64,000 nt of DNA, from assembly GCF_003334335.1 (NCBI RefSeq), contig NZ_QOWQ01000023.1; one strand, given 5' to 3'. Position 1 is the stretch's first letter. Each line of letters starts with the position of its first letter. The position numbers are program-made. This DNA comes from Escherichia coli. Its GTDB lineage: Bacteria; Pseudomonadota; Gammaproteobacteria; Enterobacterales; Enterobacteriaceae. Shown in pieces: positions 59,601 to 64,000 of this stretch.

Positions 59601-62600
59601 AGGCAGATAAGAATGAGTGCAGGTCGCTTCACGACTCTTCTCCAGAGGGGCAGAATAACCACACCGGAGTGTGGTTATGGTTAATCCCTTCATACTTCTA
59701 GCCACAGATGCAATGACTCGAATTATTTTGGGGATACATACTTTATTACTGGGTACTGGTGGTCGTGGTTGTGGTGGTCCCGGTATTAGAACCATCACCG
59801 CCACCGGTTGCCGCAAGCGCGACACCCACCGCCGAGCTTACGGTGCTGACGCTGGTCGCGGAGGAACTCCCCGCCGAAACCGACGTTGCTGCCGACCCTG
59901 CCGCTTCGCCCACCTGTACAGGTGCAGCCCACGCAGAAGTCGCCGCAAGCGCAGATATGGCAAAAATGCCATACAGAACTTTTTTCATAACAATTTCCCT
60001 TCATTGAATGAATGGAGATTTACCCAAAAACATTTCGGGCGGGATCGAGTATACACAACTAAAGCATGCGAATTACGGCGCGGGGAATTAGCGATGGCGT
60101 TTTAGGATAATTGGAATGAATATCAAATATAAGTTTCAACTTATATTTAAATAACAATAAAAATCATAAACTTAAAATAAAAACAAAAGCAATTAATCTG
60201 CGTATTTTCCGAAATAAACAACGATTAAAAATCTATTTTAGGATTAACCTCATGGTATGATTTCCGTTAAATCACAGACAAGGGGATTTATCTGATAAAA
60301 AAATGCCGACATAACGTCGGCATTGTTATTAAGGTTATTTAATCAATCGTGCTATGTATTAATTGCCGAATACGATGTACATATCGGCATCGACCTGTAG
60401 GCCTGATAAGACGCGACCGCGTCGCATCAGGCATCGGTTGCCGGATGCGGCGTGAACGCCTTATCCGGCCTACATATCGACGATGATTAACCGCGCCACG
60501 CTTTATAGCGGTTAATCAGACCATTGGTCGAGCTATCGTGGCTGCTGATTTCTTTATCATCTTTCAGCTCTGGCAGAATACGGTTCGCCAGCTGTTTACC
60601 CAGTTCCACGCCCCACTGGTCGAAGGTGAAGATGTTCAGGATCACGCCCTGAGTAAAGATTTTGTGCTCATACAGCGCAATCAACGCACCCAGGCTGAAC
60701 GGAGTGATTTCACGCAGCAGGATGGAGTTGGTCGGGCGGTTACCTTCGAATACTTTGAACGGCACCACGTAGTCAAGCGTTGCCGGATCTTTACCCTGAT
60801 CACGATATTCCTGCTCAACCACTTCGCGGGATTTACCAAACGCCAGCGCTTCGGTCTGGGCGAAGAAGTTAGACAGCAGTTTCTGGTGATGATCAGAGAG
60901 CGGGTTATGGGTGATAGCCGGAGCGATGAAATCGCACGGTACCATTTTGGTTCCCTGGTGGATCAGCTGGTAGAACGCGTGCTGACCGTTAGTGCCTGGT
61001 TCACCCCAGATAATCGGGCCAGTCTGGTAATCCACAACGTTACCGTTACGGTCAACATACTTACCGTTGGACTCCATATTGCCCTGCTGGAAGTACGCCG
61101 CGAAACGGTGCATATACTGGTCATACGGCAGAATCGCTTCAGTTTCCGCACCAAAGAAATTGTTGTACCAGATGCCAATCAGCGCCAGCAGTACAGGCAG
61201 GTTTTTCTCGGCAGGCGTGGTGGAGAAATGCTTGTCCATCGCGTGTGCGCCGGAAAGCAGTTCAACGAAGTTATCAAAGCCGATGGAGAGAACAATCGAC
61301 AGGCCAATCGCTGACCACAAAGAGTAACGGCCGCCAACCCAGTCCCAGAACTCGAACATGTTGGCAGTATCAATACCAAACTCGCCAACGGCTTTGGCAT
61401 TGGTGGAAAGCGCCGCAAAGTGTTTTGCAACGTGTTTTTCATCACCTGCCGCTTTCAGGAACCAGTCACGCGCGCTATGGGCGTTGGTCATAGTTTCCTG
61501 AGTGGTGAAGGTTTTAGATGCTACCAGGAACAGCGTGGTTTCCGGGTTTACTTTTTTCAGCACTTCCGCGATGTGAGTCCCATCGACGTTAGAAACAAAG
61601 TGCATGTTCAGGTGGTTTTTGTACGGACGCAGAGCTTCGGTCACCATGTATGGGCCGAGGTCAGAACCGCCGATCCCGATGTTCACTACGTCAGTGATTG
61701 CTTTGCCGGTATAACCTTTCCACTCACCGGAAATAATCGCTTCTGAGAAGGTTTTCATCTTCTCCAGCACCGCGTTGACTTCCGGCATTACGTCTTTGCC
61801 ATCAACCAAAATCGGGGTATTGCTACGGTTACGCAGCGCTACGTGCAGCACGGCGCGGTTTTCAGTGCGGTTGATCTTCTCGCCAGAGAACATCGACTTA
61901 ATCGCGCCCGCCAGATCGCACTCTTTCGCCAGATCCTGTAATTTCGCCAGCGTCTCTTCAGTGATGCGGTTTTTGGAGTAATCCACCAGCATCTGATCGT
62001 CGAAGGTTGCGGAGAACTTAGAAAAACGATCGCCGTCTTTAGCAAAAAGATCGGCGATCGTAACGTCTTTCATTTCATCGAAGTGTTTCTGTAGTGCCTG
62101 CCAGGCAGCGGTCTGCGTTGGATTGATGTTTTTCATTAGCAATACTCTTCTGATTTTGAGAATTGTGACTTTGGAAGATTGTAGCGCCAGTCACAGAAAA
62201 ATGTGATGGTTTTAGTGCCGTTAGCGTAATGTTGAGTGTAAACCCTTAGCGCAGTGAAGCATTTATTAGCTGAACTACTGACCGCCAGGAGTGGATGAAA
62301 AATCCGCATGACCCCATCGTTGACAACCGCCCCGCTCACCCTTTATTTATAAATGTACTACCTGCGCTAGCGCAGGCCAGAAGAGGCGCGTTGCCCAAGT
62401 AACGGTGTTGGAGGAGCCAGTCCTGTGATAACACCTGAGGGGGTGCATCGCCGAGGTGATTGAACGGCTGGCCACGTTCATCATCGGCTACAGGGGCTGA
62501 ATCCCCTGGGTTGTCACCAGAAGCGTTCGCAGTCGGGCGTTTCGCAAGTGGTGGAGCACTTCTGGGTGAAAATAGTAGCGAAGTATCGCTCTGCGCCCAC

Positions 62601-64000
62601 CCGTCTTCCGCTCTTCCCTTGTGCCAAGGCTGAAAATGGATCCCCTGACACGAGGTAGTTATGTCTGAAATTGTTGTCTCCAAATTTGGCGGTACCAGCG
62701 TAGCTGATTTTGACGCCATGAACCGCAGCGCTGATATTGTGCTTTCTGATGCCAACGTGCGTTTAGTTGTCCTCTCGGCTTCTGCTGGTATCACTAATCT
62801 GCTGGTCGCTTTAGCTGAAGGACTGGAACCTGGCGAGCGATTCGAAAAACTCGACGCTATCCGCAACATCCAGTTTGCCATTCTGGAACGTCTGCGTTAC
62901 CCGAACGTTATCCGTGAAGAGATTGAACGTCTGCTGGAGAACATTACTGTTCTGGCAGAAGCGGCGGCGCTGGCAACGTCTCCGGCGCTGACAGATGAGC
63001 TGGTCAGCCACGGCGAGCTGATGTCGACCCTGCTGTTTGTTGAGATCCTGCGCGAACGCGATGTTCAGGCACAGTGGTTTGATGTACGTAAAGTGATGCG
63101 TACCAACGACCGATTTGGTCGTGCAGAGCCAGATATAGCCGCGCTGGCGGAACTGGCCGCGCTGCAGCTGCTCCCACGTCTCAATGAAGGCTTAGTGATC
63201 ACCCAGGGATTTATCGGTAGCGAAAATAAAGGTCGTACAACGACGCTTGGCCGTGGAGGCAGCGATTATACGGCAGCCTTGCTGGCGGAGGCTTTACACG
63301 CATCTCGTGTTGATATCTGGACCGACGTCCCGGGCATCTACACCACCGATCCACGCGTAGTTTCCGCAGCAAAACGCATTGATGAAATCGCGTTTGCCGA
63401 AGCGGCAGAGATGGCAACTTTTGGTGCAAAAGTACTGCATCCGGCAACGTTGCTACCCGCAGTACGCAGCGATATCCCGGTCTTTGTCGGCTCCAGCAAA
63501 GACCCACGCGCAGGTGGTACGCTGGTGTGCAATAAAACTGAAAATCCGCCGCTGTTCCGCGCTCTGGCGCTTCGTCGCAATCAGACTCTGCTCACTTTGC
63601 ACAGCCTGAATATGCTGCATTCTCGCGGTTTCCTCGCGGAAGTTTTCGGCATCCTCGCGCGGCATAATATTTCGGTAGACTTAATCACCACGTCAGAAGT
63701 GAGCGTGGCATTAACCCTTGATACCACCGGTTCAACCTCCACTGGCGATACGTTGCTGACGCAATCTCTGCTGATGGAGCTTTCCGCACTGTGTCGGGTG
63801 GAGGTGGAAGAAGGTCTGGCGCTGGTCGCGTTGATTGGCAATGACCTGTCAAAAGCCTGCGGCGTTGGCAAAGAGGTATTCGGCGTACTGGAACCGTTCA
63901 ACATTCGCATGATTTGTTATGGCGCATCCAGCCATAACCTGTGCTTCCTGGTGCCCGGCGAAGATGCCGAGCAGGTGGTGCAAAAACTGCATAGTAATTT

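Follow-up and report, generated by a model that had tools for sequence, protein, structure and literature searches.

In Escherichia coli, the first committed enzyme of lysine synthesis is under the control of the lysC riboswitch; the K-12 element was reportedly studied by Caron et al. 2012. The riboswitch serves as a model for elements in which control of translation is joined by RNase E decay and by termination through Rho. Lysine-analogue antibacterials target it, as do efforts to engineer strains that produce lysine. According to published work, translation is repressed by lysine, which also uncovers RNase E sites and favors termination by Rho (PMC10946432; Bastet et al. 2017, PMC5499598). 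In the most recent of these studies, lysine raised Rho/NusG termination from 31% to 56%, a rut site was placed near +240 and a site termed Site1 at +250–253, and deletion of Site1 led to higher RNA polymerase occupancy downstream (Ghosh et al. 2024, PMC10946432).

Here, we analyzed a stretch of 64,000 nucleotides of E. coli DNA (the window), in which pgi (− strand) and lysC (+ strand) are divergently transcribed. An earlier note, made from the sequence alone, had marked the 524-bp spacer between them (62137–62660) as a region with a lysine riboswitch-like leader. These coordinates hold to the nucleotide: the pgi start codon, which reads CAT on the + strand, extends to 62136, the lysC ATG occupies 62661–62663, and the RefSeq annotation of an identical E. 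coli locus has the same layout. All of the strings quoted in the note were found (GAGGCGC at 62383–62389, GTTGCC at 62390–62395, GGGGGTGCATCGCCGAGG at 62440–62457, and GAGGTAGTTATG at 62652–62663), and the leader is indeed long and GC-rich, with 306 nucleotides and 58% G+C, exceeding the 43% of the spacer's promoter half and the 51% of the window as a whole. Within the spacer, the leader covers only 62355–62660 and the aptamer only 62373–62569, with two divergent promoters occupying the first 218 bp.

We conclude, with a probability of about 97%, that the element is the lysine riboswitch of E. coli lysC, a 5′ leader through which abundant lysine turns off the synthesis of aspartokinase III. 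This riboswitch is already annotated and experimentally characterized, and nothing reported here is new for E. coli. Every one of the 5,426 complete E. coli genomes carries the spacer, with an identity of 99% or more in 5,421, and RefSeq E. coli genomes have a “riboswitch” feature at the same position. The result for the window is a confirmation; the side observation on genera that lack the aptamer, described below, is of modest value. The features of the locus are collected in Table 1.

Table 1. Features of the pgi/lysC spacer, in window coordinates; numbers with a plus sign count from the lysC transcription start
Feature	Coordinates	Strand	Details
pgi promoter-like site ATCACA-18-TACAAT	62178–62207	−	consensus scan; putative function
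Conserved block ATGAAAAATCCGCAT (T-N11-A)	62295–62309	.	directly upstream of lysC −35
lysC promoter	62320–62354	+	perfect −35 TTGACA 62320–62325; A/T-rich −10 region TTTATTTATAAAT 62342–62354; read from sequence
5′ hairpin CCUGCG-CUAG-CGCAGG	62361–62376	+	+7 to +22, directly before P1
Lysine riboswitch aptamer (RF00168)	62373–62569	+	covariance model, pair map, covariation
P1	62378–83/62559–64	+	aptamer pair map
P2	62388–96/62443–51	+	aptamer pair map
P2b	62403–10/62429–36	+	aptamer pair map
L2 loop strand GCCAGU	62416–62421	+	pairs with GCUGGC 62467–62472 in L3
P3	62455–66/62475–85	+	aptamer pair map
P4	62486–96/62503–12	+	aptamer pair map
P5	62514–20/62548–54	+	aptamer pair map
Antisequester (anti-P1) 5′ strand, lysine-free ON state	62543–62568	+	+189 to +214
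C-rich, G-poor tract	62590–62625	+	+236 to +271; 18 C, 6 G
Antisequester 3′ strand	62598–62623	+	+244 to +269; overlaps 5′ arm of Shine-Dalgarno sequester
Site1 UCUU	62604–62607	+	published +250–253
Second UCUUCC	62612–62617	+	within C-rich tract
Shine-Dalgarno-sequestering hairpin, lysine-bound OFF state	62617–62655	+	arms 62617–62629/62643–62655
Shine-Dalgarno GAGG and lysC ATG	62652–62663	+	GAGG 62652–62655, ATG 62661–62663

The identity, fold, and covariation of the aptamer and its loop-loop contact were established in this analysis. A covariance-model scan, which the earlier note had itself named as the check on its riboswitch reading, returned a significant full-length match to RF00168 (the Rfam Lysine family), with 99.5 bits, E = 2.9e-26, and coverage of model positions 1–182 of 182. 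The score is more than three times the gathering score of 30 bits, and the match was recovered again in a scan of the whole window. The aptamer lies on the lysC strand and ends 92 nucleotides upstream of the lysC ATG. All five helices, P1 to P5, could be mapped and radiate from one junction, and the pairing of the segments singled out in the note is far above chance, with 47 of the 51 aligned pairs canonical. The junction nucleotides AGAGG-GC, GCCGA, UGUCA, and GGAG-CU, which form the ligand pocket, match the model consensus and are invariant across five taxa. The P5 extension measures ∼18–31 nucleotides (18 relative to the Rfam consensus and up to 31 between TGTCACC and GGTGGAG). The hairpin that precedes P1 was predicted in every fold, and Kluyvera keeps it with a different loop.

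Covariation was scored over five sequences (with Kluyvera, Cronobacter, Shewanella, and Pseudoalteromonas), the structure being derived from one of the five; 85% of cells were paired versus 41–48% for slid controls, and 15 pairs were compensatory, with both sides changed, a count reached in none of 500 shuffles. The L2-L3 contact comprises 6 bp at −9.9 kcal/mol, a value reached by 3% of shuffled L3 loops, which is modest for a single sequence, and compensatory changes in this contact were seen in Kluyvera (G-C to A-U) and Pseudoalteromonas. The notion that the RF00168 match is a chance product of a GC-rich spacer can draw on a general caution only, namely that GC-rich sequence folds readily; MFE and centroid folding of the whole leader misfolded the aptamer, and the z-score of the whole-leader fold was only −1.9. 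We give this notion no credence, as the match has the E value stated above, spans the whole model, and lies on the correct strand in front of the correct gene, and seven other sampled taxa also have the aptamer upstream of lysC, with compensatory changes.

E. coli and Kluyvera share the conserved lysC promoter with all of the short-form leaders; for Cronobacter, no alignment of the upstream region was obtained. We infer that transcription starts at 62355, because the published numbering has G309 as the G of the AUG (PMC10946432). With +1 at this position, the AUG falls at +307–309, Site1 at +250–253, and the rut site near +240, and the numbering is self-consistent because Site1 coincides with UCUU and the rut site falls in the sole C-rich tract. 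The G at 62663 corresponds to the published pause and Rho-termination site G309 (PMC10946432). On the other side of the spacer, the block next to pgi (62137–62225), which contains the pgi promoter-like site, is near-invariant in Escherichia, Citrobacter, Enterobacter, and Salmonella.

The conserved ATGAAAAATCCGCAT block is kept in all leaders with the lysC promoter, in long and short forms alike, and marks a candidate binding site for a regulatory protein, possibly ArgP. Its place directly upstream of the −35 element would fit an account in which lysine acts only at the promoter, via a DNA-binding regulator, and the leader is a nonfunctional riboswitch relic. Separate promoter-level control of lysC is cited in the literature (Ghosh et al. 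2024, PMC10946432), and sister genera manage without the aptamer altogether. We nevertheless consider this account very unlikely: the aptamer is a full-length family member whose core, helices, and loop-loop contact are intact, 5,421 of the 5,426 E. coli genomes carry it with an identity of 99% or more, and lacUV5-driven reporter fusions show lysine-dependent repression only when the riboswitch is present (PMC10946432). Promoter control is an added layer and not an alternative to the riboswitch.

For the expression platform, we mapped two mutually exclusive pairings, both strong, that are possible in six of six aptamer-bearing enterobacterial leaders and whose strands are near-invariant. The 5′ strand of the antisequester is made up of the P5-extension tail, the P5 3′ strand, J5/1, and the P1 3′ strand, and it pairs in blocks 189–194/264–269, 196–197/262–263, 199–203/256–260, and 209–214/244–249, at −25.7 to −27 kcal/mol. 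This pairing is retained in all six leaders despite an indel and agrees with the anti-P1 stem described previously (Ghosh et al. 2024, PMC10946432). Its exact register is a prediction from the sequence; the one used here places Site1 in a 6-nucleotide internal loop, and an alternative register (196–202/252–258) would pair Site1. In the competing structure, the sequestering arms CCUUGUG-C-CA-A-GG and CC-C-UG-A-CACGAGG form 11 pairs around a 13-nucleotide loop at −10.0 kcal/mol, which is the MFE fold of the isolated segment. RNAalifold recovered this hairpin in two independent leader sets, aptamer-bearing and aptamer-less; its arms are invariant, and its loop ranges from 13 to about 150 nucleotides.

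Across the six relatives, the changes seen in the platform helices amount to three one-sided replacements of G-C by G-U, with none that is compensatory, and comparison cannot prove these helices because their strands are almost invariant. Neither the aptamer nor a clean two-state switch emerged when the whole leader was folded by MFE with few or no constraints. When the aptamer was enforced or the P1 5′ strand was blocked, the folds were dominated by long-range pairing with the 5′ end and the coding sequence, and the unpaired probabilities gave a Shine-Dalgarno accessibility little different between the states. The platform pairings were assessed by local duplex analysis and consensus folding instead. 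A hairpin CCUUG/CAAGG (62617–62629) was considered as an ON-state alternative and dropped, because variation at 272–273 breaks it and also because the antisequester explains Shine-Dalgarno release.

The tract at +236 to +271 is the sole region of the leader with more C than G, and it coincides with the rut site and the target of RNase E reported by Ghosh et al. 2024 (PMC10946432). No terminator-like site (a G+C-rich hairpin followed by a U run) was found on the + strand in 62355–62660. The name L-box, used in the earlier note, fits the aptamer but not the leader, which is without an intrinsic terminator, unlike the Bacillus L-box. That lysine forms an intrinsic terminator here and stops transcription with no protein factor, as in Bacillus subtilis, might be expected from the identical aptamer family and regulated gene. 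We judge it extremely improbable in view of the missing terminator-like site and of the Shine-Dalgarno-pairing hairpin that the platform holds instead. Moreover, in the published assays RNA polymerase alone gave the full-length product, terminated products appeared in vitro only with Rho, and the lysine-enhanced G309 product needed both Rho and NusG (PMC10946432). Leader-peptide attenuation was also rejected, as the sole + strand leader ORF (62460–62633, 57 amino acids) is without lysine codons and spans aptamer helices.

With the response to lysine, the cleavage by RNase E, and the termination at G309 by Rho and NusG taken from the literature, the lysC riboswitch would most likely operate as follows. 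Lysine bound in the five-way junction would lock P1 and P5, leaving the downstream pyrimidine-rich strand free. The distal part of this strand (CCUUGUGCCAAGG) would fold onto CCCUGACACGAGG, burying the Shine-Dalgarno sequence and blocking translation initiation, and the proximal C-rich part would be single-stranded, allowing RNase E to cut and Rho to load; Rho would then terminate at the start-codon pause and further inside the untranslated ORF. When lysine is absent, the aptamer's 3′ half (the P5-extension tail and the 3′ strands of P5 and P1) would pair with the same pyrimidine-rich strand, and this long antisequester would free the Shine-Dalgarno sequence and hide the rut and RNase E region.

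Relatives were collected with a degenerate pattern scan for the lysC N terminus, which gave seven loci, supplemented by a LysC homologue search and contig look-ups. In nine sampled genomes, from Salmonella, Citrobacter, some Enterobacter, Pluralibacter, and Trabulsiella, the aptamer is absent via a gap of ∼229 bp that corresponds to E. coli 62362–62590, a segment flanked in E. coli by CTGCGC direct repeats. These lineages keep a conserved short leader with the same Shine-Dalgarno-sequestering hairpin, extended to cover the start codon. In a LysC tree, the aptamer-less lineages do not form one group, and their scatter suggests recurrent deletion or exchange of leader alleles. A search of a literature library found no report of aptamer loss in Salmonella or Citrobacter, which is not proof that it is unpublished. 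The aptamer-less genera correct the published impression of uniform lysC riboswitch conservation in Enterobacterales, and their leaders offer a natural experiment on how the platform behaves with its sensor removed. One tentative idea, which we hold to be rather unlikely, is that the distal platform at 62590–62655 (the pyrimidine-rich tract and the sequestering hairpin) is an autonomous regulatory module, kept under purifying selection after aptamer loss. If so, enterobacterial lysC translation would have a second input on this module, independent of lysine sensing by the RNA, and this input could operate in E. coli too.

Compared with known systems, the element is the same as the E. coli K-12 lysC riboswitch, from which we found no difference; the 524-bp spacer is 100% identical to that of many E. 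coli genomes, and the antisequester registers given here, being derived from sequence, may differ in detail from the published ones. With the Bacillus subtilis lysC L-box it has in common the aptamer family (RF00168), the ligand, the regulated enzyme, and the five-helix junction with an L2-L3 contact. The Bacillus L-box forms an intrinsic terminator, whereas E. coli lysC has none and relies on Shine-Dalgarno sequestration, RNase E, and Rho; a further difference is the enterobacterial P5 extension of ∼18–31 nucleotides, the 3′ tail of which becomes part of the antisequester. The E. coli riboswitches thiC (TPP) and ribB (FMN), which gate Rho loading directly, differ from lysC in their aptamers and ligands but, like lysC, combine a translational platform with a C-rich rut site that lies within the riboswitch and is exposed by the ligand, and with termination at a start-codon pause. 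Unlike thiC and ribB, lysC also has RNase E sites that become exposed in this tract, and the half-life of its pause is independent of the ligand (PMC10946432).

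The earlier note had read the lysC leader within 62137-62660 as lysine riboswitch-like, and this interval proved to be the exact spacer between the divergent genes pgi (-) and lysC (+). The sequence strings that it quoted were all found in place, and the leader is indeed GC-rich: its G+C content is 58%, whereas the window has 51% and the promoter half of the spacer 43%. The covariance-model scan that it had proposed was decisive: RF00168, the Rfam Lysine riboswitch model, matched end to end (positions 1-182 of 182) with a score of 99.5 bits (gathering score, 30; E = 2.9e-26), and the match recurred when the whole window was scanned. 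Projecting the RF00168 alignment onto the sequence gave helices P1 to P5, with 47 of the 51 aligned pairs canonical. Observation and reading are both correct, and every testable feature agrees with membership in RF00168. Every one of the 5,426 complete E. coli genomes searched contained the spacer (at least 99% identity in 5,421), which carries a "riboswitch" annotation there; the window accordingly belongs to the E. coli chromosome. In the RefSeq annotation of an identical E. coli locus, the order is yjbE, pgi, the riboswitch feature, lysC, and yjbD. We identify the element as the lysC lysine riboswitch of E. coli K-12 itself, which is already known, annotated, and experimentally dissected and is of little interest as a discovery; the mildly new material concerns only the relatives of E. 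coli, not the window.

A mechanical ORF list places the pgi start at TTG 62142, compared with the annotated ATG at 62136. Minus-strand ORFs of 67 and 181 amino acids across the spacer and a plus-strand ORF of 57 amino acids overlap the aptamer or promoters and look spurious. Elsewhere in the window, Rfam matches comprised STnc430 between yjbE and pgi, also seen in Salmonella, Citrobacter, and Enterobacter, together with four naRNA4/REP-type elements and sraL.

Coordinates of features in the window and at lysC loci of other genomes (L numbers)
Feature	Location	Strand	Remark
pgi start, ATG (CAT on plus strand)	ends at 62136	-	annotated start, conserved across genera
Conserved block ATGAAAAATCCGCAT (T-N11-A)	62295-62309		close to lysC -35 on its upstream side
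lysC -35, TTGACA	62320-62325	+	perfect; A/T-rich -10 region downstream
RF00168 match	62373-62569	+
L2-L3 contact, GCCAGU with GCUGGC	62416-62421 with 62467-62472
P5 extension with own hairpin	62521-62551
ON duplex	62543-62568 with 62598-62623		+189 to +214 with +244 to +269
Shine-Dalgarno hairpin arms, CCUUGUG-C-CA-A-GG with CC-C-UG-A-CACGAGG	62617-62629 with 62643-62655	+
lysC start, ATG	62661-62663	+
57-aa ORF	62460-62633	+	looks spurious
Other Rfam match	60185-60334	+
Other Rfam match	60400-60470
Other Rfam match	46500-46570
Other Rfam match	10520-10590
Other Rfam match	50729-50799
Other Rfam match	17828-17968	+
Aptamer-less leader, L009	857-1200		fold example, 1116-1212
Aptamer-less leader, L007	3061-3350	-
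Aptamer-less leader, L003	about 1090-1388
Aptamer-less leader, L008
Aptamer-less leader, L004
Aptamer-less leader, L012	897-1200
Aptamer-less leader, L013	908-1200
Aptamer-less leader, L014	901-1200
Aptamer-less leader, L017	899-1200
IS1, L019	3444-4141		E. coli EECO1006
Insertion, L015	about 1050-1190		Scandinavium sp.
Mor-family and holin genes, L009	2683-3750		Salmonella enterica

The lysC leaders of other genera were obtained by a DNA-pattern scan of reference genomes, a LysC homologue search, and look-ups of the encoding contigs. We aligned the aptamers of the window, Kluyvera, Cronobacter, Shewanella, and Pseudoalteromonas and tallied pairing against the structure obtained from E. coli. 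Across these five sequences, 85% of aptamer cells were paired, compared with 41-48% when partners were slid by one to three columns, a control that somewhat favors the structure because it was derived from one of only five sequences. Two-sided changes occurred in 15 aptamer pairs, the observed values being reached by none of 500 shuffles, and compensatory changes are plain in P2, P2b, P3, and P4 despite the small sample. The L2-L3 loop-loop contact typical of the family is present, and its partner bases co-vary in Kluyvera and Pseudoalteromonas. P5 of the enterobacterial aptamers holds an extension of 18 nt relative to the Rfam consensus (29-31 nt between TGTCACC and GGTGGAG) that is absent from Shewanella and Pseudoalteromonas. 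Its 3' tail, CGCAAG (62543-62548), is the antisequester strand that pairs with CUUGUG, so the switch seems to have co-opted the extension.

Published numbering designates the G of the lysC AUG as G309 (Ghosh et al. 2024, PMC10946432), from which we infer a transcription start at 62355. With this start, RNase E Site1 (+250 to +253; Ghosh et al. 2024) falls on UCUU at 62604-62607, and the rut site "around +240" (Ghosh et al. 2024, PMC10946432) coincides with +236 to +271, a 36-nt tract of 18 C and 6 G that is the leader's sole C-rich, G-poor stretch, so the numbering is self-consistent. Farther upstream, E. coli, Kluyvera, and every short-form leader share a conserved -35, -10 region, and ATGAAAAATCCGCAT block; Cronobacter could not be aligned there. 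The block is common to aptamer-bearing and aptamer-less species and is a likely candidate for the site of the reported promoter-level control, possibly an ArgP site.

No terminator-like hairpin with a U run was found on the plus strand of the leader, which rules out a transcriptional L-box of the Bacillus type. Energy minimization of the whole leader was uninformative, as it misfolded the aptamer and gave no clean two-state picture; platform folds were taken from local analysis instead. Consensus folding of five aptamer-bearing platforms gave an OFF fold downstream of P1, with a short stem of GGUG with CACC and an 11-pair hairpin that buries the GAGG Shine-Dalgarno. Folded in isolation, the E. 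coli segment adopts this hairpin as its minimum-energy structure (-10.0 kcal/mol). The hairpin arms are invariant, whereas loop length varies between 13 nt in E. coli and about 150 nt in Scandinavium. For the ON fold, complementarity between the 3' half of the aptamer and a downstream stretch runs through four blocks (189-194/264-269, 196-197/262-263, 199-203/256-260, and 209-214/244-249; -25.7 to -27 kcal/mol). Because this duplex would take the 3' strands of P5 and P1 as well as CUUGUG, it is incompatible with both the folded aptamer and the Shine-Dalgarno hairpin. It covers most of the C-rich tract; Site1 lies within a 6-nt internal loop in the register used and would be paired in an alternative one. 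The duplex can still form at -26 to -27 kcal/mol in all six aptamer-bearing enterobacterial leaders, despite a 2-nt indel and a G-to-A substitution turning G-U into A-U. All 18 platform pairs tested can form in all six sequences, with nearly invariant strands whose three one-sided changes (G-C to G-U) and lack of compensatory changes limit the comparative evidence.

Among the relatives, lysC leaders without an aptamer occur in Salmonella enterica (two subspecies), Citrobacter amalonaticus, C. braakii, Enterobacter sp. kpr-6, E. asburiae, Pluralibacter lignolyticus, and Trabulsiella; RF00168 gave no match in these leaders even at E up to 0.1. At loci with pgi upstream, the spacer measures 293-344 bp in aptamer-less compared with 524-729 bp in aptamer-bearing genomes. 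In the alignment, the short forms lack one block of about 229 bp (E. coli 62362-62590) but retain the promoter and the distal platform; E. coli has a direct repeat, CTGCGC, on either side of that block, at 62362 and 62591. As the aptamer lies upstream of lysC in Shewanella and Pseudoalteromonas, and a published census records it in Klebsiella, Erwinia, Dickeya, and further genera (Salmonella and Citrobacter rows are absent), the short form is most simply a loss. No explicit report of aptamer loss in these relatives was found in the literature searched.

The 78-86 nt of leader that remain are conserved and under constraint: their mean pairwise identity is 0.81, whereas third-codon positions of lysC reach 0.58 and the adjacent spacer 0.35. 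This short leader folds into the E. coli-type Shine-Dalgarno hairpin and a second helix over the start-codon region, the latter with two compensatory pairs; as modeled, the hairpin would sequester the Shine-Dalgarno and AUG-proximal codons.

In a neighbor-joining tree of LysC proteins (loci L001, L003, L005-L007, and L009-L018), aptamer-less and aptamer-bearing taxa were interspersed, and none of 100 bootstrap replicates recovered the short forms as monophyletic. Aptamer-bearing E. coli nests inside the aptamer-less Salmonella/Citrobacter group, and E. asburiae, without aptamer, groups with aptamer-bearing Scandinavium. This pattern suggests either that the stretch was deleted more than once at the repeat or that leader alleles were exchanged.

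Further variants were seen at these loci. The blood isolate E. coli EECO1006 has an IS1 directly 3' of the aptamer (about window 62567), parting it from the expression platform and lysC. Scandinavium sp. carries an insertion of about 140 nt within the Shine-Dalgarno hairpin loop, its ends being inverted repeats (GCCTGGCTCCTTAAGAC ... GTCTTAAGAAGCCAGGC); there and at L018, the upstream neighbor is a Na+/H+ exchanger gene, not pgi. Downstream of lysC, E. coli and most relatives have yjbD or an SBF-like transporter; Salmonella enterica L009 has Mor-family and holin genes that look prophage-derived.

As modeled, our two folds fit the two published states: OFF, in which P1 forms, the Shine-Dalgarno is sequestered, and the RNase E and rut sites lie open; and ON, in which an anti-P1 or antisequestering stem shields those sites. 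With lysine bound, the 11-pair hairpin would bury the Shine-Dalgarno; without lysine, the 3' half of the aptamer would pair downstream and exclude that hairpin. In the study of Ghosh et al. (2024, PMC10946432), lacUV5-driven fusions were repressed by lysine only with the riboswitch present, termination by Rho and NusG at G309 was 56% with lysine versus 31% without, and deletion of Site1 led to higher RNA polymerase occupancy downstream. Its expression platform sets the E. coli lysC riboswitch apart from the Bacillus L-box, and direct gating of Rho is a feature that it shares with the E. coli thiC and ribB riboswitches.
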